The position numbers and the translations under genes were made by a program. Positions 11,158 to 64,000 of a DNA stretch of 64,000 bases are shown one piece after another (position 1 is the first letter of the stretch; each line of letters begins with the position of its first letter). Location: IMG/VR virus record IMGVR_UViG_3300048691_000181, positions 32,001 to 96,000 of that record. One strand, 5' to 3'. Below the pieces are notes generated by a model. The model was not told the DNA's origin. It did not search any database and saw only the letters and a list, made by a program, of their open reading frames with translations. This DNA comes from a virus.

Positions 11158-11184
11158 GAGAAAATAACACTTAAATTTACTATT

Positions 11185-12194: not shown

Positions 12195-12806
12195 ATGCAA
12201 TTAAGAGATACATATTTACCAGAATATTTAGAACTATTCGATTATACCGAAAAAGATAAGAGTTTAGTCGCATCAAGAAAAACAGTAGGGCTTAAAGACT
12301 TTTATCTTCATTATGCCTCTGATAGAGCAAAAGAAGGGAAAGCAGTAGAATTCACATTCTCTGAATTTAAAGAGTTCTGTTCTATTTATAACGAATACTT
12401 AGCTCAAGAGATATGTCGAGAAGGTACATGGATTAAATTACCTTTTGGTATGGGACTAATAGGTATATCTAAATTTACGCCAAGATACTATAAACCACGG
12501 TTTAAGAAAGAAGGTGTAGAGCTATATACGAATCCACATTCAGAAGGTTTTGTCGCTAAGTTCTCGTGGGATAAAGAGAAAGCTATGCTAACGAATAAGA
12601 CTCTTTGGAGGCACGTAGCTCCATCTTCTCTTAGGCAGAATATAGCTAAGGCTATCTTCAACTATGATGCTGCTGGTAAATACCATATCTTAGATAGAGA
12701 ATCAGAGAAGTTAACACGTCAAGCGTTTAGGAAAGAAAAGAAACAAAAAGAAATGAACGAACGAGCTGAAAAGCTTAATCTAAAACAAGGAAAAACAAAA
12801 GCTTAA
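12195..12806 (+). CDS. IHF/HU-like DNA-binding protein (crAss-type)
   Basis: IKLPFGMGLIGISK and YTNPHSEGF..KF.W motifs; basic; synteny. Confidence 0.65.
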   Translation: MQLRDTYLPEYLELFDYTEKDKSLVASRKTVGLKDFYLHYASDRAKEGKAVEFTFSEFKEFCSIYNEYLAQEICREGTWIKLPFGMGLIGISKFTPRYYKPRFKKEGVELYTNPHSEGFVAKFSWDKEKAMLTNKTLWRHVAPSSLRQNIAKAIFNYDAAGKYHILDRESEKLTRQAFRKEKKQKEMNERAEKLNLKQGKTKA

Positions 12807-48214: not shown

Positions 48215-48829
48215 TTATTTTGCCTTTCTATGTCTTCTATGCTTAGAAGGCTTAGGAAGGGTTGCTGTATCTGTAATGGACTCAGCTGTTACATCAATAG
48301 TCTTAGTAGCCTTTTGAGCTCTAATCGCTGTAACAGCTTCTGATACAGCCGTATTCATAGTCTCTTCTTTTGTACCATGCTTGGCTATAAAGTAATAGCC
48401 ATACAGGTTATAGATAAGTTCAATAAAGAGCATCCTATTAGGCTGGATAGACTTGAATAAGCCTATGAGTCTATTTTCTATCTGCTCTTTATAATATACT
48501 TTATCCTTTTGATAGAAATAGCGCTTATCCTTAACTTCTTCAAAATTAGCAACTGACAACAACATAAGTTCTGTCATTTGAGATTTCAAAGGTGTTAAAT
48601 TTAAGACGCGTTCAAGGGGTGTAGCTTTATCAAAAGCAAGAAACTCTTGCCATTTAGCTTTTGTCGTATTGAATTTAGCAATAACGGCTAAGGCTGTATT
48701 TTGCTCTAATTCTGATAAAGTATATAAACGCTCTTTAGGCGTTGGATTAGAAGTAGATGTTATAGTCGTTACTTCTTGAGCTATATGTGCTGTCTGTTCT
48801 CCAAACATGCTATTTAATCGTGAAAACAT
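48215..48829 (-). CDS. Hypothetical protein
   Basis: 204 aa ORF. Confidence 0.6.
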   Translation of the reverse strand: MFSRLNSMFGEQTAHIAQEVTTITSTSNPTPKERLYTLSELEQNTALAVIAKFNTTKAKWQEFLAFDKATPLERVLNLTPLKSQMTELMLLSVANFEEVKDKRYFYQKDKVYYKEQIENRLIGLFKSIQPNRMLFIELIYNLYGYYFIAKHGTKEETMNTAVSEAVTAIRAQKATKTIDVTAESITDTATLPKPSKHRRHRKAK

Positions 48830-48882
48830 TGTATGTCATGTTTTGATGCCATATATGGCGTTATGTTAAAATATTCTTTTTT

Positions 48883-49644
48883 TTAAAGAATATTATATTG
48901 TACCTCAATTGCTTTACGCTTTACGAGGTTGTCTTCACCAAAGCGAGTAGACTTTGGCTGCTTTACTATTTCCGTGAATTTCGTAAGTGCTTGTTCGTAC
49001 TTATCCTTAAATGCACGTCTGTTCTTAGAGATAGGATGTTGAAATATTTCATTCTCTAAGTCTGGCTTAGAATCAAGTTCTAAGCCTTCCATCATATGTT
49101 CAGAGATGCCCATTCATCTGGCTAATGTTTCTGGAACAGCCTTGCAGGAAGCAGTTTGATTAGCTTCTCCTTTTCTTAATGCACAGAATTTCATCTCGTT
49201 TAAGCCAGCCTTAAACAGTGTAGAGATTTCAAAATTCTCGGGAAAGAATTGAACACCACTACTATTCTTCGAGTTAACGTATTCTCGCGACACCTTAGAG
49301 TACTTTCCTTCAATAAAGGGTTCTATGATGGTCTTTATATATTTAGGTCTTACGTCACAGATAATGAGTGTATGTGGCCCATTATAGTGTAAGACTTTCT
49401 TTATTTCAGAGAAGGTTAAGAAAGGCGTATTCTTTTCTATGTTTCTGAAATAAGAGAGAATAGATTCGTGCCTTTCTTCTTGTTCTAAGAAGCCGTTAAA
49501 GCAATAGATAAGCTGCTTAGTTCAAGAATCTTTATCTGATTCTAAACCAATATAGACACCGTAAAGTCCATGATGATGGTAAAGAATGTCTGTGTCTTTA
49601 CCAGAGAGAAAACCGAGATAATGAAGAGATTTGTTATTGTGCAC
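48883..49644 (-). CDS. Hypothetical protein (~253 aa) containing two in-frame TGA codons (49522-49524, 49114-49116)
   Basis: One frame runs from GTG 49644 to TAA 48883, interrupted only by TGA; contains FIEGKYSK and ELDSKPDLENEIF motifs I recall from crAss-like phage proteins. Confidence 0.8.
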
Positions 49645-49730
49645 TGATTCGAGTAGGTTTATTTAATTTTCTAATGCGGATTTGCTTTTGAATAAAGTAA
49701 CCTACTTCTGATGTTTCAGTAAGTAGGCGC

Positions 49731-50144
49731 TTAATTGTTCGGATAGAGCGATGATACGTCATTGGTGCTGATTTCTATTGGAAGCATAAACTTCCTTTGT
49801 TTTTGAATTAATAGCCACATTTTAGCGGCTGCTTCTACGGGGGAATTTTCCATCGTACTTATGAGCGTACTACCTGCTATATCTGTAATACGATAATAAT
49901 AGTATATACAGCTCTTATTATTACTTGCCTTTTGAAGAGTTAGCTCGTATCGAGAACCATAAGTAGTAATCGCTTCTGGTAGTAATGTCCATATCTCATC
50001 AAAAGAAGGACAAGCTATCGGATTAGTCTCCGATTCTTTATAGTAGCCATTAGCTTCTTCAAAGGCTTTTGAGCGATAATGACATTCTATATCCTGTGTG
50101 TATCCTGCTTCTTTGAGTAGGATACATGTTGCTAAACTAAGCAT
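49731..50144 (-). CDS. Hypothetical phage protein
   Basis: LKEAGY.Q...P...E....LP...EAAAKMW.L motif typical of Bacteroidota phage proteins. Confidence 0.6.
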   Translation of the reverse strand: MLSLATCILLKEAGYTQDIECHYRSKAFEEANGYYKESETNPIACPSFDEIWTLLPEAITTYGSRYELTLQKASNNKSCIYYYYRITDIAGSTLISTMENSPVEAAAKMWLLIQKQRKFMLPIEISTNDVSSLYPNN

Positions 50145-50201
50145 TTTTTATTAGTGTATCCCCCTTAGTTGTTACAGGGGGGAATATTTTATTTTTTGTC
50201 A

Positions 50202-51341
50202 TTAAAGTTCTAAAGTATAATTTGAATCAAAAATCCATTTGGATATATTAAAGATATCAAATTTCCTGTGCCATCGATAAGCTTCTATGTATTCAAAGAT
50301 GCCTCTAAAATGACGATGAGTGCCATTTATTTTCCCGTAGCCGCCATTTAATCCTATATCCAGAGTTTTCTCAGACACTACGAATTTAAGAGCGCTCTGA
50401 CCAAAGAATTCCTTCTTAGGAGCTACTATGAACTTAAATGGCATTAGCGTATACCCTTCTCTAAACAAATCTTGAAAATAGCCATCTGCATTCTGGATTA
50501 GCCACACGTAGAAAGCAGCTTGACGAAAATATCCGTATTTATAGAAGGCGTCTTCAAAGTCCTGTGGATTAGAAGATGTTGTTTTTAGGTCAATTGGCTC
50601 TATAGTTCTATCAAAGTGATTGACTATTACCAAGTCCAATAGGCCTTTAAATTGCATAACCCCATCTTTGGCTTTACCCATAAGGTCTATATTAGGGTCA
50701 GATATATCTTCTGGATATGTAACAGTATGGTAGATAGGCACTTGATATAAGACCTCACGTGTTTCATCATTCTTATCCACACCAAAATAAGACCGTATGT
50801 CTGGCAACTGTTCAAGAGCCCTAACAGCTACGTCTATTTCCTCGAAGTCATCATTAGAGAGTATATCTTTACCTTGTGCTTGTTCTCGAGCACGGTAATA
50901 GCCGCATAACTCGCCTTTGGTCCAGAAATCTTTTATGATGGCATTTATGTTCTTCTTATAGCCTGAATAAGCGTAAGCACGAAGATAGAGACCAATATTT
51001 ATATTAGCCTTAAATTCGTCTTCATCCCATACTTCTTCATTCAGCTCGAATAGGGGTAGATTGTCTATAAACTTTAACATAAGACCTGTGGGGCGATTGA
51101 CGTTAAAGACGAAGAATTGAGAAGAAAAGTTTTCTTTATCGGTTAAGAGACAATCTACGGCCCTTCCTATTCTAAAATGACGTATGTCCTCAGTCTCTAA
51201 CTGAGTATTCTCCTCCCAATAACGAATCCAAGCAGGATTCTCTACTTTCTTAAGTAGGGAGTTGTTGACAGCCTTAGAAGAGAAGTATTTCTTAATTCTA
51301 CCTTCTTCTGTTATGGCTTTATATGTATTTAAGGATTCCAT
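50202..51341 (-). CDS. PD-(D/E)xK exonuclease (RecE/Cas4-like)
   Basis: G.AVDCLL, FKGLLDLV......PIDLKTT, Y.RQAAFY. Confidence 0.8.
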   Translation of the reverse strand: MESLNTYKAITEEGRIKKYFSSKAVNNSLLKKVENPAWIRYWEENTQLETEDIRHFRIGRAVDCLLTDKENFSSQFFVFNVNRPTGLMLKFIDNLPLFELNEEVWDEDEFKANINIGLYLRAYAYSGYKKNINAIIKDFWTKGELCGYYRAREQAQGKDILSNDDFEEIDVAVRALEQLPDIRSYFGVDKNDETREVLYQVPIYHTVTYPEDISDPNIDLMGKAKDGVMQFKGLLDLVIVNHFDRTIEPIDLKTTSSNPQDFEDAFYKYGYFRQAAFYVWLIQNADGYFQDLFREGYTLMPFKFIVAPKKEFFGQSALKFVVSEKTLDIGLNGGYGKINGTHRHFRGIFEYIEAYRWHRKFDIFNISKWIFDSNYTLEL

Positions 51342-51365
51342 TATTAGGTTCTTAAATGTTATTTT

Positions 51366-51827
51366 CTAAAAATCGAATATGGCTCTATCTGCTCTTTTTA
51401 ATCTTAACCAGTAAAAACAGCAAGATAATATCTCCATCCAAGATATAGAAGCAATCTTATATAAAGGTGGATGCTGGTTGTAGACGAATCCGTGATAGTT
51501 GTCATGTAGTGCTTGTGTCAAGCGCCTCGAAGTGTCAATCGTACTTTCAGAGCCAAAAGACTCAGTTAAGAAGAAAGCTTCTGTTAGCCATACTTTCTCA
51601 TTTTCTGTCACAATATTGTGAAATTCGGAAGAATGGTAATTGCCTTTTATGTGATGCTTCTTACAAAAAGCATAGGCATCGTTATTCGTAGAAACAGAAG
51701 TCCTTACTTTGCCTAAGAAGAAACACCAAACAAGTTTAAAGTCTTTTGGATGAATTCTGCAAATAAGACAAAACATGAAACGCTTCATCCTTAAACTGAA
51801 AAATGTGTTATAGAACCAGTTAGCCAT
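51366..51827 (-). CDS. Hypothetical protein
   Basis: 153 aa ORF. Confidence 0.5.
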   Translation of the reverse strand: MANWFYNTFFSLRMKRFMFCLICRIHPKDFKLVWCFFLGKVRTSVSTNNDAYAFCKKHHIKGNYHSSEFHNIVTENEKVWLTEAFFLTESFGSESTIDTSRRLTQALHDNYHGFVYNQHPPLYKIASISWMEILSCCFYWLRLKRADRAIFDF

Positions 51828-52386
51828 CTCTTTTTCGTTTAAGATTACTTATTTTTTCTTCATGAAGCTCTTTGAAAGAAGGTAATCCTTTTCTTGCTCT
51901 TTGCTGGTTGGGCTTATAGCAGAAGCTATTATTCAGCTTACACCATTTGACCCAATCAGAACCAATTTCTGAGAGTTCTGATTGTTCCGTCTTTCTTTGC
52001 CATTTCTGAATCATGTGCAAAGGCTGAACCCAAAAGGATGCTGAACCAACTGTATAAAGCTGTTCATTAAAGTTATCCACTGGTCGAGACCGCTCTTGAT
52101 AATCTCGTTCAAGATAGCGAATTCCTTGAATTGTTGCTTCAGAAACTTCCCAAAGCTCACAAACGATATGACAATCTCTCTTATAGGCGGCATAAGGATA
52201 ATCCATCCCTTTGTGCATATAGAGTGTATAGTGCTTTAGTTTCGTCAATCCAATAAAGAAGCTATCTCTATCTTCAGTAATGACATTATGTCGTTTGCAG
52301 TCCTTTCTCAAAGAACCATAGATTAAAATATGGTGTCGTTCTGCTAAGGCTTCGCTTACTTCCGCTATGCGGATGTTGTTTTTCAT
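51820..52386 (-). CDS. Gamma-glutamylcyclotransferase (AIG2/GGCT-like)
   Basis: ILIYGSLRK...H, YP, ELWEV, LE..Y. Confidence 0.7.
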   Translation of the reverse strand: MKNNIRIAEVSEALAERHHILIYGSLRKDCKRHNVITEDRDSFFIGLTKLKHYTLYMHKGMDYPYAAYKRDCHIVCELWEVSEATIQGIRYLERDYQERSRPVDNFNEQLYTVGSASFWVQPLHMIQKWQRKTEQSELSEIGSDWVKWCKLNNSFCYKPNQQRARKGLPSFKELHEEKISNLKRKRDG

Positions 52387-52394
52387 TCTTTTTT

Positions 52395-52655
52395 TTAGTT
52401 TGTGAAATGTCTAATTATGGCAATGAGCACTGGCACAAAGACTGCTATAAATATAGCACCATGTATTAGTCCTCTAATATAGAGCCAATTCCTATGTCTG
52501 TCTGAAATGTGTAACTCAAGTGCATTGTCTTTTAAGAGCGATGCTACAAACTTGTCTATCTCAGTCTTCGATTTAGTCTTTTTCAATCCCTCATGCTTAG
52601 AGAGATATTCTTTTTTGTGTGCTCGAATTATTGCCGAAAGTGGTCTCAATTTCAT
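52395..52655 (-). CDS. Small protein with C-terminal TM
   Basis: 86 aa; hydrophobic C-terminus. Confidence 0.55.
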   Translation of the reverse strand: MKLRPLSAIIRAHKKEYLSKHEGLKKTKSKTEIDKFVASLLKDNALELHISDRHRNWLYIRGLIHGAIFIAVFVPVLIAIIRHFTN

Positions 52656-53010
52656 TCTTAAGTATTGAGTCTGGCGATATTTTAAAATAGAGTCCTGAAC
52701 GGAAAGAATCGAGCATAGAAAGTGTTACCGAATCAGCAAAGAAGATATTTCTAAGAGCGTCCCAATGAGACGAGATAAATTCAGGGTCTTCTTGCCATGG
52801 TGTTCCGTTACAATATTGTCTTTCTTCTCGAAGTAAAACTTCGAGAATTTCTTCTCTAATTGCTCGCTCTTTTCTGAAGTGACCTATTTGTTCAGCCTGT
52901 CTTAAGGAATAAGCTTGAAGCTTTTCCTCTATGTATTTCATATAAGTCCATAATGACATTATGCACAATAATGAGATAAGAATAAATCCTCTCATGTTTA
53001 CACATTTCAT
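52597..53010 (-). CDS. Hypothetical protein with N-terminal TM
   Basis: 137 aa. Confidence 0.5.
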   Translation of the reverse strand: MKCVNMRGFILISLLCIMSLWTYMKYIEEKLQAYSLRQAEQIGHFRKERAIREEILEVLLREERQYCNGTPWQEDPEFISSHWDALRNIFFADSVTLSMLDSFRSGLYFKISPDSILKNEIETTFGNNSSTQKRISL

Positions 53011-53447
53011 TAGTCTTCCATTTTTAAACGTTTTTTAATATCCTCAACAGTAAGCAATGTATCCTTTTGAGAATGAGATACGTAAGCTAAACAGTAAGGA
53101 TGATGTTCTTTCAACCAGAACTTGAATAGCTTCCATTTAATCATAAATTCTGGTGTAGCCATGCCTTTTGTCTCTATGACCCATTTCCAGTCAGGTGAGA
53201 CAAAGTCTGGCGTATATGTCATGTCTCTACATGAACATGTTTGCTTGATGATTCCTTTCTTTACGTCAAAAGAACAAAATTGAAATCTCGGATGAAGCAT
53301 AACGCAATGCTCCTCGTAATCGAAAGGAATATTCTGGTCTTGAAGCAATTTAGAACAATAAGCCTCAAGACCAGAACGAAAGCCATTACCTGAAACGGCT
53401 TTATATTTATGTAAAGGGATGCGTTTCCCTTGTTTTCTTTTTATCAT
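53010..53447 (-). CDS. T7 endonuclease I-like Holliday junction resolvase
   Basis: FRSGLE, YE, YTPDF, IETKG, KWKLF. Confidence 0.8.
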   Translation of the reverse strand: MIKRKQGKRIPLHKYKAVSGNGFRSGLEAYCSKLLQDQNIPFDYEEHCVMLHPRFQFCSFDVKKGIIKQTCSCRDMTYTPDFVSPDWKWVIETKGMATPEFMIKWKLFKFWLKEHHPYCLAYVSHSQKDTLLTVEDIKKRLKMED

Positions 53448-53450
53448 CTC

Positions 53451-53786
53451 TTAATGTGCCGTAGTAGCACCTCTTATAATGAAATTCATAGCATCTACTA
53501 CATCTTGCCTTATTTGAAGATGTAGTAGCTTTATATTTAAAGGATGAAGATTTGAATGGTTACCTCTTAAATAACACCATTCAAATGCATTCCTCGTATT
53601 CCCAGTTCCCCTATCAAGGCTTATCCATTTCTTCTGAAAAAAGGATTCTGCTTTTCCGAATTCGTTTAGAATACAAATAATAACGCCTTCATGAAGGGAA
53701 TCTAAAAACTCTATTTGTTGTTCAAGTGTATCAAACTTGAACTTTTCGAGATGCTTGAAGTTATAATTAAACTTATGCCTTGTCAT
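53451..53786 (-). CDS. Hypothetical protein
   Basis: 111 aa ORF. Confidence 0.5.
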   Translation of the reverse strand: MTRHKFNYNFKHLEKFKFDTLEQQIEFLDSLHEGVIICILNEFGKAESFFQKKWISLDRGTGNTRNAFEWCYLRGNHSNLHPLNIKLLHLQIRQDVVDAMNFIIRGATTAH

Positions 53787-55038
53787 TTTCGGCTAATTTA
53801 ATACGAGCTTCCAGAATAGTCTTCATCATCTCCCAGTCTTCACCATAGTTCTGGATAGTTGCTACAACAAAGTCATCGATATCCTTGAAGCCGATATTGT
53901 TATCGTCCATAAATACTTTATAAACATTCGTATAGCCTAAGCTTCTGAAGTGGCGCTCTTGACTATTTGCTGCCTTTCTTCCTGCGGCATCGTTGTCCAT
54001 CCAGATATAGATTGGATAAATTGGAATTATTCCAAACTCTATATCGATTTGGGTCATATATTCTTTAGACAATTTTGTTCCTTCACCGCACTTGCCTCCT
54101 ATGATAAAGTCTTTAAGGAGTTTCTTAATAAGAAGTGCATCTTTAAATCCCTTTGTCACAATGAAGCCTTTCCACGGATAGCGTGGTAGAATACTTGATT
54201 CCGTACTCTGCATATCCTTTATCCATTTCTTCAGACTGTCTTTATCACAATTCTTGATTAAGATATCTGGTGATGCTATGTTCTTAAACTTGTGAGCTTT
54301 GGACTCACTATATGGACGATAGACCTGCATAGGCTTGTCTTTATCGTGATAAAGGAACAAAGGTTGCTCTACCGTATCTAAGAAAACTGTCTTTTTATCG
54401 GTAAAGACCTTATTTAAGGCTTTAACGTGACGGTAAATATCTTCTGCGCCAAGTCCTCGTTTAGCCCAGAAGTCCATGTGATGCTGTTCAAAATCAAGCA
54501 TTTCGTCAAACTGAAGAACTGGCTTTTCGAGTGACCAGTCTTCTTTCTTTTGCGCCTCTAATAAGGCGGCTTTCTTTGCCTCGTATTCGGCTGTTACAAT
54601 TCCGTCTAACATCTTTTTCTCTTTCTTTTTTTGCTCCTTGAGCCTCTTTAATAAATCCTTACTACTTATGTCACTTTCTTCTAAATATGGCTTAGAATCA
54701 ATGAATAGCCCCTTCTCGTTCATCTTGCCCATGCAATTACCAAGATTGGCTAATATTTCTACAACTTCTACGAAGTCTTTCCCTTGAGACACTTCGTAGG
54801 CTCGGAAGATGTCGTAGGTCTCTCCTGTTGCAAAATCATGGAATAGCCAGATTCTCGAATCTGCTTTATCTTTGAAGAAATTACAATCTGCGTGTTTGTC
54901 TAAACGAAAAGGGTTCTTAAAGCGTCTTGTAGGATGAAAAAAGCCAAGTGCGCTGTTAAACGCACTTGGAATATCGACATGGTCGTAAATAATAGACTTA
55001 ATCTCTTTCCAGTCGATTGCTTCTTTATTATGTATCAT
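53773..55038 (-). CDS. dnaG: DnaG-like primase (TOPRIM)
   Basis: NPFR.DKHADC..FHDFATG N-domain; IVTKGFKDAL; WMDNDAAG; KDIDD. Confidence 0.8.
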   Translation of the reverse strand: MIHNKEAIDWKEIKSIIYDHVDIPSAFNSALGFFHPTRRFKNPFRLDKHADCNFFKDKADSRIWLFHDFATGETYDIFRAYEVSQGKDFVEVVEILANLGNCMGKMNEKGLFIDSKPYLEESDISSKDLLKRLKEQKKKEKKMLDGIVTAEYEAKKAALLEAQKKEDWSLEKPVLQFDEMLDFEQHHMDFWAKRGLGAEDIYRHVKALNKVFTDKKTVFLDTVEQPLFLYHDKDKPMQVYRPYSESKAHKFKNIASPDILIKNCDKDSLKKWIKDMQSTESSILPRYPWKGFIVTKGFKDALLIKKLLKDFIIGGKCGEGTKLSKEYMTQIDIEFGIIPIYPIYIWMDNDAAGRKAANSQERHFRSLGYTNVYKVFMDDNNIGFKDIDDFVVATIQNYGEDWEMMKTILEARIKLAENDKA

Positions 55039-55081
55039 TTCTATTTTTTTACGACCATTATGTTATGGAAGATGGTTTATT

Positions 55082-55765
55082 TTAGAACGGAAGTTCTCCG
55101 TCTTCTTCCGTTAAAGGAGCATCAACCCTATGTCCTTCTGGTTTAGAAGCTGAAGGAGCTAAGTCTGACTTAGAGCTTCCCGTGTAACCAGAAGTGTCGC
55201 GAGGCTTCATTCTTCTATGTAGATTTTTGTCAAGTTCCCATTGCGTGAACTTAATCTTAGATTCAACACCTTCTATGTGTTTCTCAATTTGAGGGCAAGT
55301 AGGTGTCCCTGCATTCTCGCTAAGTTTGGTCCATTCGTCTTTATTGTCCATAATCACCTTGATACTTACGAAGCGATTAGGCATTTTACGTTGCTTGTCT
55401 ATATAGGAGAACATAGTCGAGATATTTTTCTCGTAGTCGGCAGTTAGATATTTGTCGATTTCTCCTTGTGTACCAATTGCATCACAAATCTCCATTAGCT
55501 TCAAGACTAACTTATCTTCAGCTTGTTTCTTAGTTAAGGTTACTTTTCCGTTCTGAACAAAGTCTTTCTTATTGATAAAGAGAGCTAAGTCAGCGTATTC
55601 GTCTGAAGTAGTAGACTCAAAGGTAAGCTTAAAGAAAGGAGTTTCAGGCTTAGTATCTACCTTTTCTGCTTTAGAAATAGTAAAGCGTGTGAAAATTCCT
55701 GGATTAGAGATTTTGATTTTCTCAATTTGTGAAGCACGTAGGCTTTCTGCGTATATATTAGACAT
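55082..55765 (-). CDS. Single-stranded DNA-binding protein (putative)
   Basis: OB-like N-terminus and acidic EEDGELPF tail; lies between the AAA ATPase and primase. Confidence 0.6.
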   Translation of the reverse strand: MSNIYAESLRASQIEKIKISNPGIFTRFTISKAEKVDTKPETPFFKLTFESTTSDEYADLALFINKKDFVQNGKVTLTKKQAEDKLVLKLMEICDAIGTQGEIDKYLTADYEKNISTMFSYIDKQRKMPNRFVSIKVIMDNKDEWTKLSENAGTPTCPQIEKHIEGVESKIKFTQWELDKNLHRRMKPRDTSGYTGSSKSDLAPSASKPEGHRVDAPLTEEDGELPF

Positions 55766-55846
55766 GTGTATATGTATGTTTTATCCCTATGTTGGGATTA
55801 TTTTAATTTTCTATATATAGATAGTTAATGTGTTTATTTGTTTTAG

Positions 55847-55933
55847 TTAAAGAGTTCCAAATGGATGAAGTTCTAATTTATTCTTTAATTCGATTATAGA
55901 TTCATCTGAAAATTTTCCAATTTTAACTCCCAT
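55847..55933 (-). CDS. Possible 28-aa peptide
   Basis: MGVKIGKFSDESIIELKNKLELHPFGTL*; TAATG-coupled to the ATPase stop. Confidence 0.3.
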   Translation of the reverse strand: MGVKIGKFSDESIIELKNKLELHPFGTL

Positions 55934-56655
55934 TATGTAGTAGTTGAAGTTGTTTCAGGAATTTCTAAATCATATTTACGAATTAATCGAATCACTTCTC
56001 CTAAATCGTTTGACATAAACTTTGGAAGTACTCCATAAACAGACCTTGCTTCACAAAAACCTAAATTTTGCGTACGAAGATTAAATCGTTTTTCTTCTTC
56101 TGTTTCATCGATATCAAGAAACGTATATAGATTATAATTAGTAAATTTAGATAATCTACTTTTAGTTGCTTGTTTGCCAGGAAATAAAGTACGAAGATGC
56201 GTTTCTTTTAATCCTGTTTGAGTATTGACGCTATCATATTCCTCAGCATGGCATAGGAATATGATAATTAAATTATCATCTCCTGCTCGTTCTTGCGAAT
56301 TAGCAAAACTATATAAGTCGTAAGCGTCATCGGCTAAGTTTTTCCAAACGTCAAATCCTGGCTTTCTTCGTTCGTCTTGAAGATAATCAGTTAGTATTGT
56401 ATTTAAAGTATCTAACACAATTATCTTTATGTGTGGGCGACTTTTGACAATTGCCGAAATATAACTTTTTATTTTTCCTATATCACTTTCCCGTACGTAG
56501 TTTTTGTTTGTGGCATTATATTGCGAACGCCATCCAGAGTAGCTCATGCCTTTCTGGTCCGTATCGATAATAAATGTTTCTTTCGGGTCTAATGTTTTTA
56601 ATGAAAATGACTTACCTGTAGCTGGAAGTCCCGTGACTTGTAATAAAAGTGCCAT
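55933..56655 (-). CDS. AAA_24/Sak4-like ATPase (recombination)
   Basis: GLPATGKS Walker A; IIVLDT Walker B; IFLCHAE. Confidence 0.8.
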   Translation of the reverse strand: MALLLQVTGLPATGKSFSLKTLDPKETFIIDTDQKGMSYSGWRSQYNATNKNYVRESDIGKIKSYISAIVKSRPHIKIIVLDTLNTILTDYLQDERRKPGFDVWKNLADDAYDLYSFANSQERAGDDNLIIIFLCHAEEYDSVNTQTGLKETHLRTLFPGKQATKSRLSKFTNYNLYTFLDIDETEEEKRFNLRTQNLGFCEARSVYGVLPKFMSNDLGEVIRLIRKYDLEIPETTSTTT

Positions 56656-56693
56656 ATATGTTCATGGTGTCTTGCCTATATATGTTATAGGTC

Positions 56694-57023
56694 TTATATT
56701 TTATTAACGTTCTTTGCGATTCAGCCAGCAACAGTTTCGTTATACAGCGAGAAATCTATAATTGCTCCTGCCGCATAACTATTCTTCTTTGGCTCAACCT
56801 TTTTACTTTCTTTTATCTCTTCTTTCTTAGGCTCTACTTTAGGAGTTGGTACAACTACTTTAACTTCCACAGGAGCCTGTTTTGCTGCCTTCTCAGCCAT
56901 TATTTGAAGGTTATAGCGCAATTCTACTATATTGTAGAAATATTGCATTAGAAACAAAATAAGAAAGATATAAGCAAGATTGTGAAAACTTGCTTTATAT
57001 CCTTCAATAATCTCAATCATCAA
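56694..57023 (-). CDS. Single-TM protein; 109 aa if the TGA at 56721-56723 is read through
   Basis: ...ETVAG*IAKNVNKI-TAA. Confidence 0.55.
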
Positions 57024-57060
57024 GGATGTAATTGAAACTGCTTTCTTGGGTTCTCTTATG

Positions 57061-57068
57061 CAAAGATA
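57061..57068 (-). promoter_or_regulatory. Bacteroidota sigmaA -7 element
   Basis: TATCTTTG on the - strand, about 38 nt upstream of the 57023 start. Confidence 0.55.
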
Positions 57069-57137
57069 AGGATTTTCTCATTGAAAGTGGGTTGTTAGGT
57101 AATTTTCTTTCTAATTTCTTTCTTGCAAAGTGCTCTC

Positions 57138-58148
57138 TTAGATGAGCGTGTTTGTAGGCTGATAAGCGTCTCTTATAGTAGAGTTCTTAAAATCAGCAAT
57201 CATGTGAAGTACGGGACATTCGCCAAACCTATTCTTCAACAGGTGGAAGTATATCATAGGAAGACCTGTTCTTAGGTCATATACAGGGTAGTTTAGGTCT
57301 CCGTACTCTTTGATTCCCCGTACTCTACTTGGATTCATACTAAACAGAACTATGTCCGAATTAGAAAAGATGGCAGACGAGCCAAATATGTCTGCTTCGG
57401 TCGGGTAGTGTAAGGCTTTATTTGACACCCTTGCTGAAGAGAAAATGTCTCTATTTGTTTGGCTTAAACAAAGAAAGATAATACTCAACCCCATATCTTC
57501 AAAATCCTTCTTCATGTCTACTAATTGCTGGTAGAGATTGTCTACAATACGCTTAGCGTCTTCATCATTCTTTCCCTTCGTTAGAGTGATATAATCTATC
57601 GTGACAATGAGCTTTTTCTTTCTTCCTTCATCAGTAAGATTTCCTTCATTATCCCAAAGTTCATCTAACTCACGGTCAATAACAAATTGACATATTTCTG
57701 TCTTTATTTGGGCTACAGATTGTGCTTTGTCTATGTTAAATACAGGTTTATCTCCAAGCGTCTTTATAGCTTCCTCGACAAGTGCTGCTTCCTCCTCAGT
57801 CATAACGTACCCTCTCGCAGATTGAAGACTCTTTAATCCAATGCCTGTCTTCTTTGATAGATGTCGTAGTATTTGCATACGCACAATCATATCGAACTCG
57901 AAAGATAAGCATTCGACCAAAGGGTCTTGTTCCATAATGAAGTACTTTATTTGCTCCATAATCGTAGATTTCCCTGAAGAAGGCGTACCTACAATAGTCA
58001 TTAATGTCCACCACGGGATGCCGTCCAGTAACGCATCGTTAAGACCTCTGTACGGTGTTTCTGCTGAAGGAAGTAGCCCGTCTTTACGAGCAGTCATGTA
58101 TTCTTTTGTTTTCCGTATATCTACGGATATGTGTTTATATGCACCCAC
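57138..58148 (-). CDS. dnaB: DnaB-like replicative helicase
   Basis: GTPSSGKS; FEFDM; VTIDY; LSQTNR; DIFGSSAI...SD; LLKNRFG. Confidence 0.85.
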   Translation of the reverse strand: MGAYKHISVDIRKTKEYMTARKDGLLPSAETPYRGLNDALLDGIPWWTLMTIVGTPSSGKSTIMEQIKYFIMEQDPLVECLSFEFDMIVRMQILRHLSKKTGIGLKSLQSARGYVMTEEEAALVEEAIKTLGDKPVFNIDKAQSVAQIKTEICQFVIDRELDELWDNEGNLTDEGRKKKLIVTIDYITLTKGKNDEDAKRIVDNLYQQLVDMKKDFEDMGLSIIFLCLSQTNRDIFSSARVSNKALHYPTEADIFGSSAIFSNSDIVLFSMNPSRVRGIKEYGDLNYPVYDLRTGLPMIYFHLLKNRFGECPVLHMIADFKNSTIRDAYQPTNTLI

Positions 58149-58250
58149 TTGCGTCTATGTATTATTTATGGGATTATTTTACTTGGCTAAGAAATATAGC
58201 TTTCCATTTTTTCTATGGATATATAGATGTCTGCTACTTCTTTCTCAGCC

Positions 58251-58296
58251 AGTTCTTTGAGCTCTTTGAGAAAGAACTCAAAGAGCTCAAAGAACT
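58251..58296. repeat. Perfect 20-bp inverted repeat with 6-nt loop
   Basis: AGTTCTTTGAGCTCTTTGAG-AAAGAA-CTCAAAGAGCTCAAAGAACT. Confidence 0.9.
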
Positions 58297-58373
58297 CGAT
58301 TAAGACATTTTTTTAAGATGTAGTCTTGAAAGATATATCTATAAAATGAGTATATCCATCATTCACCCAATGC

Positions 58374-58571
58374 CTATAATTCTTCTTCGTAAGTGTCGCC
58401 TCGTTCGACACTTACTTCAATTATTTTCCAGTCAATGACGCCATCGTCATCTGCATCGTTGAGTGTATCTTTTTCATACTCAACGACTTCAGCAATTACC
58501 TTTTCTAATTCTTGTTTATCTTTACAAGAATATACCGCAGTCTTAGAGACTGTTACTTGTTTCCTAAACAT
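58374..58571 (-). CDS. Small acidic hypothetical protein
   Basis: 65 aa. Confidence 0.55.
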   Translation of the reverse strand: MFRKQVTVSKTAVYSCKDKQELEKVIAEVVEYEKDTLNDADDDGVIDWKIIEVSVERGDTYEEEL

Positions 58572-58747
58572 TTTTTGATTCTTGTTTTTCTCTTAAAAAT
58601 AATAGCACGACCAAATTCTTTTGATTGTTGCTTCTCGTCTAACTCTTTAGCGAGTTGACGCATGGCTTCAATACATTCATCTACAATGAGCATAGATTCA
58701 CCCTTTACTTCAAAGATGCTGGAGATTAATATTTTTTTTGATTGCAT
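58553..58747 (-). CDS. Small hypothetical protein
   Basis: 64 aa. Confidence 0.5.
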   Translation of the reverse strand: MQSKKILISSIFEVKGESMLIVDECIEAMRQLAKELDEKQQSKEFGRAIIFKRKTRIKKCLGNK

Positions 58748-59013
58748 TATTCTTCCAGTTCTATTTCTTCGACCTCTCCTTCGGTACAGGTCATTTGTCC
58801 TAACCAGAGATAAGGATGTTCTTTTTCGTAAATATCGACGATGCCATCAACTTGGCCTTCGATTTCTTTCTCAAACTTCTCGATGATGTCTGGGTATTCT
58901 TGACCCTCAAATACCTCTTCGCTCAACTCTAACTCATAAGTTAGAGTTGCTTTAAATTTTCTTTTATACTTTAGCTCCATTTTAGATTGGTGGAGATAAT
59001 CCCTTATCCCCAT
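58747..59013 (-). CDS. Small acidic hypothetical protein
   Basis: 88 aa. Confidence 0.55.
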   Translation of the reverse strand: MGIRDYLHQSKMELKYKRKFKATLTYELELSEEVFEGQEYPDIIEKFEKEIEGQVDGIVDIYEKEHPYLWLGQMTCTEGEVEEIELEE

Positions 59014-60244
59014 TTAGCGAATAAAAGCACTTTTCGGCTTGAAGAAGTGCTGCTTGAAGGCATGCTATCTGCCCTTCCCAATTAGTAGAGAATTCTTTAA
59101 CATGGTTTTCATCGAACATAAATAAAGATTGTTCGATGAATGTATGTGAGAGAGACTTCTGGCAATTTTCTTTACCAAAACACTCTATATGTAATCTTCT
59201 ATCTTTTATTATTTCTTCTGAAACAATAAAGATAGAGAAGGTTAAGCACTTTACTTCTCTCTCTGGTGGAGAATAGATAACGTAACCTATATTTGTATAC
59301 CGCCATAACTGGAAATAGTATTCTCCAAATTCTTCACAAACGAAGTGGTCATTTACTTCTTCTGGTTTAGAATTTCTTATGTCTTTCTCGAGGTTCTTAT
59401 AGTTCTCAGGGAAAGGAAGGTCACTGTGATACTCTGGCACTTCCTTGTCTTCCTTCTCACTATCTCCCATACAGCAATTAGGACATTCTTCTCGAGGAAA
59501 AGAGTCTTTTATATATCCCGTTAGAGAAAGGTCGTAAGGAACCTCTTCTAAGCAGGAATCACATGTCTTTATCTGATAGTAAGGCTGGTCTTCGTGACCA
59601 TTTACCATTAGACAACTATCGCATGTATGAGCGCTAATAGTAGCCTTGTCTGTCCGATTGAGATGCTCTTCAACAGTGACCATATAATCTTCACCACAGA
59701 GAGCACAATAGTCTATCTGAATCTGAAACATATCTTGCTTTAGATACTCGTCGTGCTCTTCAAATCTGTCATCTATGTCTTCCATCTCCATTCGAGGATG
59801 ATAGTCTTCTGACTCGAACTTGAGTTCACTAATGTCGTTCAAGCATTTATCGCAAACAAGCACAGTTGCTTGAATAGCATCAAAGTTCTTTTGAGGAATC
59901 TGAAACGGGAATAAGAGCTTTCTCCCTGACATTTGATGTTGAAACAAAGCTGTTTCAGATTCCTCTGAGAATTCGATTCATTGGCGCATAGAGTCGGATA
60001 AAGGGTCGAATTTTATCCCTCTCTTATCGCATATATAGCACGTACAGCTCCGCTCAAATATATCATCTTTACCAAAGCGGGGTAGCTCTCCATTGCGTAC
60101 AAAAGAATAAACGTTCTTGTGTGCAATTTCTTCTAATCCTGCTTTTTCAAGATACTTTTTATAAGTTGAGCTGTACTTGTTTTTTATAAAGTTATTAGCG
60201 TCTGTATCCTTATTTTGGATAACGCTACAAATAGAACAACCCAC
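58982..60244 (-). CDS. Multi-CxxC (Zn-binding) protein, 420 aa with one in-frame TGA (59978-59980)
   Basis: ORFs 59978..60244 and 58982..59947 are in frame, joined by DSMRQ*IEFSEESETALFQHQ; both halves carry CxxC pairs. Confidence 0.75.
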
Positions 60245-60270
60245 ATGTTTAAGGTTCTTGTACGTTTATT

Positions 60271-61449
60271 TTAGTTCTTGGGCAACTCGATACCCAATAC
60301 GCTTGGGTCAGAACAGGTCGACCTGAAAATTTTATTAACCTGTTCGACGAGTCCTTTTCGCTCACCTAAATTCGGATTCTTTTCAGCTTCGTCCAGCATC
60401 TTATTGGTTGAATTTAGCATCGTAATAAATGGCATACCACCCGTTGGTCCCATGGCTGTTTGCTTTTTCCTAATGACTTCTTCAAACTCATCGACTTGAC
60501 TATCTGTGAGTTTAGCCGCATTCTTTAACAAGCGACGAATGATTTTATCTTCCTTCTCAGCCGCCTTTTTTTCTTCGGGCAATCGATTGTCGTCTGTTGG
60601 CGGTGTAACGGGCTTAGCTGGGTCGGCAGGTTTTGGATTCCCTTTTTCTTCCTCTTTTTTTGCTTTTCGGTCTGCCTTATCTTTGTCGATAAGGCTCTGA
60701 TTCAGCTTGTCGATAATGGTAGATTCTCCCATAACCACGGCTAAAATAGCAATCATCACACCTTCTAATATAGAAGTGATAATGTGAACCTTGAACAAGA
60801 AGAACGAGTTGTTCATATTGAAGCCCAAGTAATTTGAAACTTCAACATTAGGGTCAAACCTTCCCCGATATGGAGCTGCTATTTCAGCAGGTGATTTCCA
60901 GAACATGAAAAATCTTTCAACCGCATAGTTAAACTCAGGTACCTGTTTAAAGCCCTTCGCAATTAACGCACAGTTGCCCCATGCGATATAGAAAGTAGAA
61001 AAGACAAGGACGACTGACATGATTAGCAAGAGAAAGAATGCTGCTGGCTTAGCTGACCTGATGACATCGCCTTTTTCGTTTCTTAAAGGACCAAAGAACT
61101 GAAGTCCTTGTACCGTCATCATCAGGAAAAACGGCGTTACACACGCACATAAAAATCCGACAACAGAGATAACGTTGTGTTGCAAAAATCTTGCAATCAT
61201 CGAGATAGGCTGTTCATCGGCAGGATGAACGAGCGTAGCAATATTTGCCTCCGTGATAAAGGAGGCAATATTCATAATAATAATGAGCATTAGAAAATTG
61301 CCCATGACGAAATGGGCAAAATAATGCTCCATTGTCGTTTTTTTTACTTTGGCTCGCCAAACGAGTCCTACCATGAATATGGCTAACATGATTACCGATG
61401 AATACATCAGTAAATCAGAAGTGAACTTGTCTCCGTCAACTGGGTGCAT
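60271..61449 (-). CDS. Polytopic membrane protein
   Basis: About 5 TM segments plus a charged C-terminus. Confidence 0.7.
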   Translation of the reverse strand: MHPVDGDKFTSDLLMYSSVIMLAIFMVGLVWRAKVKKTTMEHYFAHFVMGNFLMLIIIMNIASFITEANIATLVHPADEQPISMIARFLQHNVISVVGFLCACVTPFFLMMTVQGLQFFGPLRNEKGDVIRSAKPAAFFLLLIMSVVLVFSTFYIAWGNCALIAKGFKQVPEFNYAVERFFMFWKSPAEIAAPYRGRFDPNVEVSNYLGFNMNNSFFLFKVHIITSILEGVMIAILAVVMGESTIIDKLNQSLIDKDKADRKAKKEEEKGNPKPADPAKPVTPPTDDNRLPEEKKAAEKEDKIIRRLLKNAAKLTDSQVDEFEEVIRKKQTAMGPTGGMPFITMLNSTNKMLDEAEKNPNLGERKGLVEQVNKIFRSTCSDPSVLGIELPKN

Positions 61450-61485
61450 AAAACATTTTTTTTATTCCGTTAAAGTATACTCTTC

Positions 61486-62025
61486 TTAACCAGCATAGTC
61501 TGGTCTATCCCAAGAAGACTCTAATTCGGTCATGCCGTCCTTAGAGTCTTCTTCTTTTATGTCAAACAAGGAATCCAAATAGCTATGCCATTGTTCCATG
61601 TTTTCTGTATGTCCTTTTATTCTACCAATTGTGTTTTGGACATTCTCAGTCTGAATAGTAGAAAGTTCATCTATCCGATGAAGGACGTATGGGCAGTCCT
61701 TCAACTTTTTACATATATGTTCACTATATCTCTTTTCCTGATAGCCTCCATCGCCAGCTAAGTCAAACTGAGCATCTTCTATGACCAGTTCGTCTTCGTT
61801 AGCGTATTGAAATAATGAAGACATGAAGCTCTTAAAAGGAATCCATTTTTCGCTATATTGTACCAGTTCCATCTTCTCTTTAAGGAAAGTGGCATAAAAA
61901 CAATGAGATGGATTTGAGTTATCGAGGTAAAGGAAGATAGAGTATTCTATCTTGTCAACCGTCAATGGCATCAACTCCTTTCTAAGAAAGTAATACCATT
62001 TAAAATACGTCTTTCCTAATGCCAT
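61486..62025 (-). CDS. Hypothetical protein
   Basis: Likely start MALGKT (62025); ORF track starts at 62088. Confidence 0.55.
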   Translation of the reverse strand: MALGKTYFKWYYFLRKELMPLTVDKIEYSIFLYLDNSNPSHCFYATFLKEKMELVQYSEKWIPFKSFMSSLFQYANEDELVIEDAQFDLAGDGGYQEKRYSEHICKKLKDCPYVLHRIDELSTIQTENVQNTIGRIKGHTENMEQWHSYLDSLFDIKEEDSKDGMTELESSWDRPDYAG

Positions 62026-62039
62026 TATCCTTGGTTTTA

Positions 62040-62786
62040 CTACTTTAAATTCACATGCACATGAACTCCCGTTGCCCACGGAACCCATCTCCAGTGTTTT
62101 TCTTCATCAAGGGAAAGCATTCCTTTTGAAGACTGTTTATAGTCTTCGATAAAGAAGACTAAATTGTATTTATTAAGCCATCCCTCCCCTGATTCAGACA
62201 TCAACCAAGATGTTAATGTTTTAGAGTAATTGAGGTCAATGGCTTTGCCACACCTATGCCCCTTGCCGCCCCAATTACGATACGTGGAAGTCACAATTAT
62301 GTCGGGTGCAGAGTAATCTGCTAAATGTGCGAGCGCGTCACGTATCTCGTACGTGAGTTTATCTCTGCCCTGATTTGCCTTTTTCTGGTAAGTAACTCGG
62401 CTCGTTGCCTTTTGTAATCCCTCCAGCTCTTGAATGTCTGAATGGGAAATACTATCGCTATTGCTAATTTTCTTAACCAACGCAATCTTGGTAATAGCAA
62501 GTGTAACATTGGTATGCTTGATACCACGAATATGATGGCTATGACTGCCATCCAAAAAATAGTCATATTTTGTTTTTCTTAAGTTTTTGATTGCAAGCGT
62601 AGATTCTTCTCGAGGACACTCTAAGAGGTCTTTTATCGAAACTACGCTTACAATCGAATTAAATGATGTTTTAACGCATATTTGAGTTTTCTTTTTCTCG
62701 AAACTCATAAGTGGGAGGATAGCCAAAATCCAGATTAATTTCTTAATTTGAATAAGCCACCTTCCCCCTTTATTTATATGTACCAT
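62040..62786 (-). CDS. Peptidase M15-like Zn peptidase with N-terminal hydrophobic segment
   Basis: IIVTSTYR, H..GKAID (H-x6-D), HVHV. Confidence 0.7.
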   Translation of the reverse strand: MVHINKGGRWLIQIKKLIWILAILPLMSFEKKKTQICVKTSFNSIVSVVSIKDLLECPREESTLAIKNLRKTKYDYFLDGSHSHHIRGIKHTNVTLAITKIALVKKISNSDSISHSDIQELEGLQKATSRVTYQKKANQGRDKLTYEIRDALAHLADYSAPDIIVTSTYRNWGGKGHRCGKAIDLNYSKTLTSWLMSESGEGWLNKYNLVFFIEDYKQSSKGMLSLDEEKHWRWVPWATGVHVHVNLK

Positions 62787-62805
62787 CTTTAAAAGATTAG
62801 TTATT

Positions 62806-63324
62806 TTAAACTGAAGCTACAGTATTCTGAACGTATAATTCGTAATCTGCCTTTAATTGGATATACGATTTAGTATTCAAATCAGGATTCATGGGCAGTA
62901 CGAGCTTTTGAGCTTTACTCACCATGAACACTTCTGCGCTTTGCAACTTCGACAAAGTTACACCATTTTTGTCTAAATGGTTTTTTGGCACATACTTCTC
63001 AACATAAACATCGGGATTCTTATCTTTTTTTCCCTTGAAAGAAGGGTTGAAATAGCCTGATGTTGAAGAGCTGAACCATGTCGTATTTGGATTGAAATAT
63101 ACAGGTGCACCATTCTTATTTTGGAATGTGTGCATTAGCCCTGATTCAGTATAGCTAACATTGTATATTTGCTTGGTTCTTTTATCCCTTAAACAGACAA
63201 GATTATTTTCTACACCAAGCAGTCATTGAAGGAAAGGGTCTATGACCCTTTGTGTTGAGGATACAAGTTTGGTCGCAAAAGTTACAGTATTGGTTTTGCC
63301 ATTTGTGGCGTCAGTGGTATACAT
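62806..63324 (-). CDS. Hypothetical protein, 172 aa with one in-frame TGA (63223-63225)
   Basis: ATG 63324 MYTTDATNG...DPFLQ*LLGVENN...GLMHTFQ is continuous with ORF 62806..63135. Confidence 0.75.
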
Positions 63325-63388
63325 TAATTTGAAATTTAATCGTGAAAAAAAATAAGGTGTATGTTTAGGTTAATTTGCAAATTGGATT

Positions 63389-64000
63389 TTATGTTAAATC
63401 ATCGTAGCAAGAATCGCAAACCTTCTTGCCTTTATAGAGATTCTTCTGTTCTTCGTCAAAAGAATCGCCACATTCATCACAAGTGAATGTTTCAGGCTCG
63501 TCCTCTACTTCATTATTTTCCTCGAAGCAGGAATTGCACCAACGGGGTGTTCCATCCGAGTTTTCGATAGCCTCTTCAATCGTTTCATCGCAATCATTCA
63601 TCCTGCGTTCAATCTCAAGGTTGAAAAATTCCAGTCCTCCCTTGCAATCGCAGTCACAACACTCGAAGTTGTATACAACTTCGGGAAATAAATCTTGATT
63701 AGGTACTTCAATGGGAGTAGCTTCTACTCGACTTTCCTCTGGCATGCTAAAAACACTCTCTTCAGCTTTCACTGGTGTCTCAAACATAGAGTAGTCGAAA
63801 GCCAGAATCTTCTCTATGTCTAAGGGCTCAATCGGAATAGGTGTAGTATCCATCTTGAGTTTCTTAATTGTTGGAGCTGCCGCTTTCATCTCTAAGATGA
63901 GATTCCAGAGCTCACTATAAACCGTATGTCTTTTTTCGTACACCGTGGTCAAGAAGATAGAAAGTGCTTTATCATAGCACATCTTTCTGGTCAAGCCAAT
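63389..64000 (-). CDS. Acidic CxxC-rich protein (probably starts beyond the window)
   Basis: CCDC, CNSC, CDEC, CDSC. Confidence 0.6.
   Translation of the reverse strand: MGLTRKMCYDKALSIFLTTVYEKRHTVYSELWNLILEMKAAAPTIKKLKMDTTPIPIEPLDIEKILAFDYSMFETPVKAEESVFSMPEESRVEATPIEVPNQDLFPEVVYNFECCDCDCKGGLEFFNLEIERRMNDCDETIEEAIENSDGTPRWCNSCFEENNEVEDEPETFTCDECGDSFDEEQKNLYKGKKVCDSCYDDLT

Follow-up and report, generated by a model that had tools for sequence, protein, structure and literature searches.

Three genes on the minus (-) strand of a freshwater crAss-like phage, designated A, C and D, contain four internal TGA codons (two in A, one each in C and D), all on this strand, and at the three that homologue alignments cover (59978, 63223 and 49114) the nearest intact homologue carries tryptophan in every case. 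Judging from the conserved sequence beyond the stops, these genes probably need occasional UGA read-through, and with slightly better than even confidence we attribute it to gene-specific leakiness, the UGA being decoded as Trp by the host tRNA-Trp. The phage itself keeps to the standard code, in which UGA terminates translation. An earlier note on the window (the whole 64,000-nt stretch analyzed, positions 32,001 to 96,000 of IMG/VR record IMGVR_UViG_3300048691_000181) had described five interrupting TGAs; their coordinates, contexts and strand are as it gave them, but only four are internal, and the one at 56721 is not an interruption.

Phage genome and relatives

The whole genome comprises 106,963 bp, with a CheckV completeness of 100%. 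PHROG matches include TerL, portal, MCP and GroEL; the best match of TerL is Cellulophaga phage phi14:2 (28% identity over 94%), with which the phage also shares GroEL, GGCT, a Sak4-like AAA_24 protein, DnaB and primase. The crAss-type TerL, portal and MCP, the giant RNAP-region proteins and the two-block genome are those of Crassvirales, and relatives of the phage infect Bacteroidota. At least part of it occurs in 24 freshwater runs recovered with a 10-kb query, most of the query being present in only 2 of them, both of which may be the source sample; no RNA runs were listed among the matching runs.

Close relatives of the three genes are scarce. IMG/VR searches with C, TerL and A/D/C alignments returned only two distant homologues of D (L005 and L006), and a JGI metagenome search returned a single, very distant locus (L004). 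No match was found in GTDB genomes, among GenBank phages for A, C and D, or by megablast of the region. Pfam and PHROGs searches for the function of genes A–D gave no match, an ESM Atlas search gave no usable lead, and an AlphaFold model of D, built from 4 sequences, was discarded as unusable (pLDDT 39). Standard gene callers reduce A, C and D to stubs of 76+59, 316 and 109 aa, against 253, 420 and 172 codons for the continuous genes, and the public gene calls P0001, P0004, P0007 and P0010 are fragments of them.

Internal TGA codons of genes C, D and A

Gene C (58982–60244, - strand; 420 codons, GTG start) encodes a Cys-rich protein with many CxxC pairs. Its intact homologue P0002 (422 aa) matches it at 40% identity and 95% coverage, beginning with residue 1 and with the GTG start opposite M1, and the 88 residues N-terminal to the TGA are conserved. 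The TGA itself, codon 89 (59978–59980, - strand; context CAA TGA ATC), falls in a column occupied by W in P0002 (DSMRQ-stop-IEF against DSMKK-W-LEV), and a TTG lies 10 codons 3' of it. Among the strain differences listed for 59254–59513, nearly all are at third codon positions of the gene C frame.

Gene D (62806–63324, - strand; 172 codons, ATG start at 63324) shares 71% identity and its start position with the intact P0003 (174 aa). Its TGA, codon 34 (63223–63225, - strand; context CAA TGA CTG), is aligned with W in P0003 (DPFLQ-stop-LL against DPFLI-W-LL) and with S or E in remoter homologues. The best-conserved block of D (LRDKRT...VSYTE) is situated between this TGA and the next candidate start, codon 64; codons 35–63 were searched for ATG, GTG and TTG, and none was found.

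Gene A (48883–49644, - strand; 253 codons) runs from a GTG start at 49644 to a TAA at 48883. Its Trp positions are codons 41 and 177, both of them TGA, and it contains no TGG. Codon 41 (49522–49524, - strand; context TCT TGA ACT) lies outside all homologue alignments, and the Trp comparison accordingly covers the other three internal TGAs. Codon 177 (49114–49116, - strand; context AGA TGA ATG) is spanned by P0008 (51% identity, query aa 63–180) and P0009 (45% identity, aa 112–251), which have W and F, respectively, in this column, with the alignment unbroken on either side. The ATG immediately 3' of codon 177 makes a stop-restart split possible there. Codons 2–117 contain no ATG, GTG or TTG; since the conserved residues 63–117 follow codon 41 without any start codon, we infer read-through of codon 41. 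Together, the conserved sequence that follows a TGA without a restart codon in A (42–117) and D (35–63) means that read-through is needed.

Coding potential points the same way as these alignments. The earlier proposals that the genes are continuous and that the TGAs stand for Trp are both supported. Segments flanking the TGAs score 0.20–0.45 per codon in the same frame (reference means 0.29 for the true and -0.58 for the wrong frame), including four of the four segments of gene A; the exception is D codons 35–63, which at 0.012 still exceed the 95th percentile of wrong-frame scores (-0.064). Read-through closes the gaps of the table-11 annotation from 437, 30 and 253 nt to 86, 0 and 64 nt; the 30 nt agree with the earlier estimate, whereas the other two gaps had been put at about 530 and 190 nt. 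An ORF of 63 codons in another gap (window 58179–58370), containing four TGAs, was rejected for want of coding signal.

Standard code and use of UGA as a stop

A change of code by the phage is ruled against, as UGA remains a stop elsewhere in the genome. Genome-wide, 8 other minus-strand ORFs, taken as at least 6–8 genes, end at TGA, with the next TAA or TAG 1–13 codons on; the earlier statement that every other gene ends in TAA or TAG is thus true of the window but false for the genome as a whole. Among these ORFs are a glucosaminidase and a GH25 lysozyme, in both of which the Pfam domain finishes just before the TGA, and two of the TGA-ended ORFs have ATGA stop/start overlaps. The presence of these two lysis-type enzymes also means that the minus strand carries more than early or replication genes; of the proposed confinement to an early strand, the restriction of internal TGAs to the minus strand stands. 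The TGA of gene B (56721–56723, - strand; likely ATG 56900, read-through ORF 56694–57023) cannot be told apart from an ordinary stop, since reading through it would reach the TAA at 56694 after just 8 more residues, and it is treated as such, like the 7 other terminal TGAs of the genome. Re-calling genes, a check suggested earlier, raised the coding fraction only from 0.928 with code 11 to 0.941 with code 4.

The late plus-strand block contains 203 TGG codons, no in-frame TGA and no TGA stop, which bears out its description as TGG-only. In the cultured, standard-code phage phi14:2, TGA terminates 9 of the 62 ORFs in the early set and 2 of the 45 in the late set; given the same early/late asymmetry there, the absence of TGA stops from the late block does not point to incipient reassignment, as had been suggested, and we dropped it as evidence. 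A second stop follows within 3 codons at five of the eight terminal TGAs, against 26% of TAA/TAG controls, a marginal difference (p about 0.03).

No decoding machinery of the phage's own was found, contrary to the idea of a phage suppressor tRNA: ARAGORN (default and relaxed) and Rfam detected no tRNA(UCA) in the complete genome, and PF00472 and PF00579, sought for a release factor and TrpRS, are absent from it. Odd tRNA-like genes were considered as UGA or quadruplet decoders and rejected, because neither UCA nor UUCA is displayed by any of them and the ORFs continue without a change of frame beyond the TGA. A-to-I editing of the UGA was likewise rejected, as the contexts lack the TadA-type editing motif, UACG. 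Selenocysteine, for which UGA is a codon, or glycine, as in the freshwater Patescibacteria-type hosts that read UGA as Gly (code 25), is extremely improbable as the inserted residue: the homologues have W or F rather than C or G, an Rfam search of the whole genome gave no SECIS family above threshold, and the hosts of the phage's relatives are Bacteroidota.

Origin of the internal TGAs

The record is a metagenome assembly and was checked by contigs, which leaves room for sequencing or assembly errors with TGG as the true bases; we regard this as very improbable. Logan's independent assembly of run X2 has the TGAs at 49114, 49522 and 63223 with 0 differences, in a comparison of contigs rather than raw reads and with a run that is possibly the source sample itself. 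Contigs of runs X3 and X4 extend over 49522 and 59978, with strain differences read by position for 40 of 468 rows. Moreover, four random errors would hardly all strike third positions of Trp codons (375 TGG in 107 kb), and no sequence motif is common to the four sites. Strain differences display no strand-biased excess of G>A (G>A 63, C>T 53, A>G 62, T>C 61).

It is also conceivable, if rather unlikely, that the genes are broken or split by recent nonsense mutations in dispensable genes, their fragments being inactive or serving as separate peptides. A, C and D are orphans with few relatives and are called as fragments in public annotations, TGG-to-TGA is a single transition, two hits in one gene fit a gene already dead, and the ATG after TGA 49114 and the TTG past TGA 59978 could serve a split. 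Set against this, the three genes lack the features of decaying pseudogenes: frameshifts, TAA and TAG are all absent, TGA is the only lesion, coding signal is intact on either side, and the equally easy TGG-to-TAG transition is not seen (4:0). Under a random-nonsense model with the phage's own codon usage, the probability that four of four stops are TGA is ~3e-3, and that of three TGG-to-TGA changes plus one more TGA is 5e-6 to 1e-4, so that four TGAs, three of them at Trp, are very unlikely under random decay. Broken genes would further leave the best-conserved blocks of A and D untranslatable, in a phage that is widespread, at least in part, across freshwater runs.

The favored reading is leaky, gene-specific read-through. 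Four Trp codons of three replication-side accessory genes would have mutated from TGG to TGA; translation would begin at the conserved starts and mostly terminate at the UGAs, with a fraction of these read by a near-cognate host tRNA-Trp(CCA) or by a variant tRNA-Trp that reads UGA well. Read-through would reinsert the original Trp and give full-length protein at a lower level. Such TGG-to-TGA changes may survive because leakage restores the original protein, albeit at lower level, and all four stops may be TGA at Trp positions because only this nonsense restores the wild-type protein on leakage. The occurrence of read-through, its level and the tRNA responsible are inferred.

The immediate contexts of the stops offer slight hints. 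The four TGAs are followed by A, A, A and C, never U, which is statistically weak (chance about 0.06–0.2); +4U is the strong termination context in bacteria (PMC5289835). Hairpins 3' of the TGAs reach z about -2.3 at two sites, again statistically weak, and the RNA downstream of the TGAs contains no structural element common to the sites.

Leak or switch

Bacteria usually leak little at UGA, with a background of at most about a few percent. Because gene A requires two read-throughs, only a host that decodes UGA efficiently would give it more than a very small yield. Among standard-code bacteria, UGA-reading variants of tRNA-Trp(CCA) are widespread (PMC13092985).

A deliberate translational switch, as raised in the earlier note, is possible, and we consider it unlikely in its full form: efficient, regulated decoding of UGA as Trp, with the three proteins made only under certain conditions. 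Its agent might, with similarly low confidence, be a host tRNA-Trp that reads UGA well (one with a 4-bp anticodon stem, of Hirsh type or with a UCA anticodon) or an as yet unrecognized phage factor weakening RF2 at some stage, and the whole could tentatively be seen as an incipient or pared-down version of the stop-codon gating of recoded phages. The Trp evidence from homologues fits a switch as well as it fits leakage, the sooner second stop after terminal TGAs would suit it, and the majority of minus-strand proteins have no known family, leaving room for a novel factor. In a 103,776-bp ENA relative, roughly 45–67% identical, the C homologue is called full length, whereas the calls of the D and A homologues begin at the residue aligned to V43 and at residue 111, respectively; these short A and D calls hint at in-frame stops upstream there too, possibly conserved. 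The switch is nevertheless weakened by the lack of a suppressor tRNA, RF or aaRS in the genome, by the TGA-terminated genes of the same strand with their two ATGA overlaps, by the early/late stop asymmetry common to standard-code phi14:2, and by the mere 4 codons affected.

Conserved, programmed UGA gates that allow trace or stage-specific dosing of the three accessory proteins are a doubtful but related reading. Host tRNA-Trp read-through or a phage factor weakening RF2 could conceivably operate such gates, and the short calls in the ENA relative might then, tentatively, represent the same stops kept over long divergence. If the stops are conserved in relatives, they would provide simple host-dependent dosing of phage proteins, and host range would be predicted to depend on UGA reading by host tRNA-Trp and RF2.

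Comparison with known systems

Leaky UGA decoding has a classical example in the A1 read-through protein of Q-beta, made when tRNA-Trp reads a leaky UGA, and low-level decoding of UGA as Trp occurs in E. coli and B. subtilis. As proposed here for genes A, C and D, no dedicated phage machinery would be involved in either case; near-cognate tRNA-Trp would compete with RF2, and the full-length product would be the minority. The genes continue in the same frame past the UGA, into sequence needed for a conserved product, as in Q-beta. Unlike Q-beta, an RNA phage in which a complete coat protein gains a domain at one site, the stops in this dsDNA phage occupy internal, ancestral Trp positions, read-through would only restore the original protein, and one gene would need two such events.

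Phages of Gracilibacteria and Absconditabacteria, whose hosts read TGA as Gly, are code-11-compatible, with back-up stops and no in-frame TGA (PMC10746230). The present phage resembles them in the TAA or TAG close after terminal TGAs and in the many genes that avoid a TGA stop, but differs in having in-frame TGAs, with Trp in the homologues, and its back-up-stop signal is weak.

TGA-to-Trp recoding is established for the 'code 4' Agate and Jade phages and some crAss-like groups (Borges et al., bioRxiv 10.1101/2021.08.26.457843; Yutin et al., PMC7886860), and phage recoding is usually recognized by dense in-frame stops together with a phage suppressor tRNA. Like these phages, the present one is low-GC and crAss-like, presumably has a standard-code host, has in-frame TGAs that align with Trp and has a part of the genome free of them. 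Recoded phages, however, carry TGAs by the tens to hundreds, concentrated in structural and lysis genes, with standard replication genes, have lost TGA as a stop, and usually encode a tRNA(UCA), in some cases together with RF1 and TrpRS. In the present phage the 4 TGAs lie in 3 orphan replication-side genes and spare the structural ones, TGA still terminates other genes, and suppressor tRNA, RF and TrpRS are missing. The case suggests that a standard-code dsDNA phage can retain sparse UGA-for-Trp codons without a suppressor tRNA, and such leak-tolerated TGG-to-TGA changes may be the raw material where recoding begins. If the gates were real, stop-codon gating would act on the replication side, the reverse of the known late-gene pattern.

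Genome Organization and Taxonomic Placement of the Phage

The virus record comprises a single sequence of 106,963 bp with a CheckV completeness of 100%, and the window covers its positions 32001–96000. Its PHROG matches (crAss-type terminase, portal, major head protein and GroEL), together with a terminase whose best match is that of Cellulophaga phage phi14:2 (28% identity over 94%), indicate a distant environmental member of Crassvirales. The two phages have a common layout and share GGCT, a Sak4-like AAA_24 protein, DnaB, primase and GroEL. Structural genes form a plus-strand block at 14.6–78.6 kb of the genome, and replication genes lie in the minus-strand block, along with numerous orphans, two lysins and several tRNA-like genes. 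In the window, a single TAA and 78 nt lie between the 711-aa ORF (20922–23057, +) and the 6327-aa ORF (23136–42119, +), which share a reading frame, perhaps by chance (1 in 3). Sequence from the query stretch is listed, at least in part, for 24 public runs, all with the label freshwater metagenome, and only two of them contain most of it. Strains related to window positions 48800–63400 (~87–99% identity; 87–94% in runs X3 and X4) were found in many freshwater metagenome runs, the differences being mainly transitions at third codon positions.

Internal TGA Codons in Three Minus-Strand Genes

All five TGAs described in the earlier note (49114, 49522, 56721, 59978 and 63223) are present, each in the peptide context quoted for it. 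Their interpretation as gene interruptions holds for four of them, located in gene A (253 codons, 48883–49644, –; TGA at codons 41 and 177), gene C (420 codons, 58982–60244, –; codon 89) and gene D (172 codons, 62806–63324, –; codon 34). The TGA at 56721 instead appears to end gene B; it is followed after 8 codons by TAA and resembles seven other terminal TGAs of the same strand. Judging from their sequence, the TGA read-through ORFs A, C and D are real and continuous across the four internal TGAs: every segment flanking a TGA has, in the shared frame, the codon usage of coding sequence, and no frameshift, TAA or TAG occurs inside the three genes. In gene C, which is rich in CxxC pairs, strain differences fall almost exclusively at third codon positions. 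Between codons 2 and 117, gene A lacks a possible start (ATG, GTG or TTG), yet residues 63–117 are conserved; in gene D, the first start past the TGA is codon 64, downstream of the most conserved block.

Homologues support the proposal that TGA stands for Trp. Gene C aligns from residue 1 with P0002, an intact 422-aa protein from a 103,776-bp ENA contig (40% identity), and the alignment crosses the TGA at codon 89, where P0002 has W. Likewise, the intact 174-aa protein P0003 from a 4,005-bp JGI contig (71% identity, start in common with gene D) has W at codon 34. Two homologues span codon 177 of gene A: P0008, from a 3,320-bp JGI contig, has W at this position, and P0009 has F. Codon 41, one of the four internal sites, is covered by none.

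TGA Remains a Stop Codon

The four internal TGAs do not represent a change of code. The earlier statement that credible genes never end in TGA is limited to the window, since lysin genes and genes with an ATGA overlap end on it elsewhere. Outside the window, the minus strand carries seven other terminal TGAs, followed by the next TAA or TAG after 1, 1, 2, 3, 3, 8 and 13 codons; two of the seven form an ATGA overlap with the ATG of the next gene. Two more of the seven end genes for lysis-type enzymes on stretches L001 and L003 of the phage genome, one with a glucosaminidase domain (L001:6284–7381, –) and one for a GH25 lysozyme (L003:6750–7526, –); TGA stands just past the Pfam domain end, with a back-up TAA/TAG 1 and 3 codons further on, respectively. 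Both enzymes are thus encoded on what has been called the early strand. Relative to TAA/TAG controls, nearby back-up stops are only marginally more frequent past terminal TGAs. Full reassignment is contradicted by conserved genes ending on TGA, and re-calling under code 4 raised coding density only from 0.928 to 0.941, with no additional credible in-frame TGA beyond the four internal sites. At L005 and L006, two distant loci with gene D homologues, TGA is freely used to end genes in the matching region. No RF-1 domain and no TrpRS-type synthetase is encoded. ORFs ending in TGA account for 0/41 late versus 8/54 early ORFs (Fisher p = 0.009); phi14:2, which uses the standard code, has a similar asymmetry (2/45 versus 9/62), so the scarcity of late TGA stops is a habit of the lineage.

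The suppressor tRNA(UCA) suggested earlier was not found: ARAGORN and Rfam yielded no UCA anticodon, either among the tRNA-like genes or among the cloverleaf-like elements. Five tRNA-like genes, scoring 65.5 to 32.3 bits, reach the threshold of the Rfam tRNA model, all outside the window (genome coordinates): four on the minus strand (L001:9874–9946, 10302–10374, 11155–11227 and 12525–12595) and a fifth on the plus strand of another stretch (L002:4673–4754). The anticodon loop is not 7 nt long in any of them: it has 8 nt in three (CUUGAAAG, UUAGGUUU and UUAUAAAA) and 6 nt in one (UUUAGU), and in the remaining one it is non-canonical and accompanied by a long extra arm. Further cloverleaf-like elements lie at ~9250–9328, ~9534–9607 and ~20580–20664 of the genome, outside the window. 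The tRNA-like genes and these elements look like non-decoding tRNA mimics. A Pistol ribozyme match (L001:13193–13254, –; 54 bits, gathering score 34.5, whole model length) sits within a 141-codon ORF (12958–13383; TTG start, TGA stop), which is therefore probably not a gene; the T-arm sequence of the tRNA-like gene 10302–10374 recurs directly downstream of 12958. No Pfam family was matched at E ≤ 1e-3 by a 505-aa protein (L001:3042–4559, –), and PF05731 (TROVE), searched against all six frames of the genome, gave no match.

Leaky Termination as a Candidate Mechanism

A nonsense-mutation model was built from the codon frequencies of this phage, with transitions weighted 1–4. In this model, a random nonsense mutation creates TGA in ~24% of cases and is a TGG-to-TGA change in 3–8%, and the probability of four TGAs out of four, three of them at Trp, is 5e-6 to 1e-4. 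Among the strain differences, G-to-A changes are not in strand-biased excess. Three of the TGAs are identical in the Logan contig assembly of public run X2, which is possibly the source sample. Given the low model probability, the absence of this G-to-A bias and the lack of frameshifts, TAA and TAG, random error and simple decay are poor explanations of the internal TGAs.

Gene-specific leaky termination is the simplest reading of the internal TGAs, and we consider it slightly favoured over the remaining possibilities taken together. Of the stop codons, UGA is the most readily misread, with Trp inserted by near-cognate tRNA-Trp(CCA); such misreading underlies the Q-beta A1 protein and low-level UGA-as-Trp in E. 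coli and B. subtilis. Here, tRNA-Trp(CCA) would misread UGA and place Trp at the internal TGAs. Leakage through a TGG-to-TGA change would give back the wild-type protein, as no other nonsense mutation would, which would explain the all-TGA, mostly-Trp spectrum. According to a recent survey (PMC13092985), the sole tRNA-Trp(CCA) has a 4-bp anticodon stem in 6.5% of standard-code bacterial genomes, and A9C or G24A forms occur in many others; UGA read-through in E. coli increases with variants of this kind. The +4 base at the four internal TGAs is A or C, never U, a statistically weak pattern; +4U is the strong termination context in bacteria (PMC5289835).

The TGG-to-TGA changes may be merely tolerated, or may serve to hold A, C and D scarce. 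In the ENA relative (45–67% identical), whose contig encodes P0002, P0009 and P0011, the D homologue is called from the residue aligned to V43 and the A homologue from residue 111, with the C homologue at full length. Since upstream in-frame stops would yield internal gene-call starts, the short calls hint that such stops are conserved in its D and A homologues.

Recoded phages (Borges et al., bioRxiv 10.1101/2021.08.26.457843) share the TGA = Trp signature with this phage; however, none of their other defining features is found here (dense TGAs, a bias towards late genes, TGA no longer serving as a stop, and a suppressor tRNA). Classical near-cognate read-through is closer in its working but produces a C-terminal extension, whereas here read-through of this type would, judging from the sequence comparisons, act on ancestral Trp codons inside genes of a dsDNA phage.
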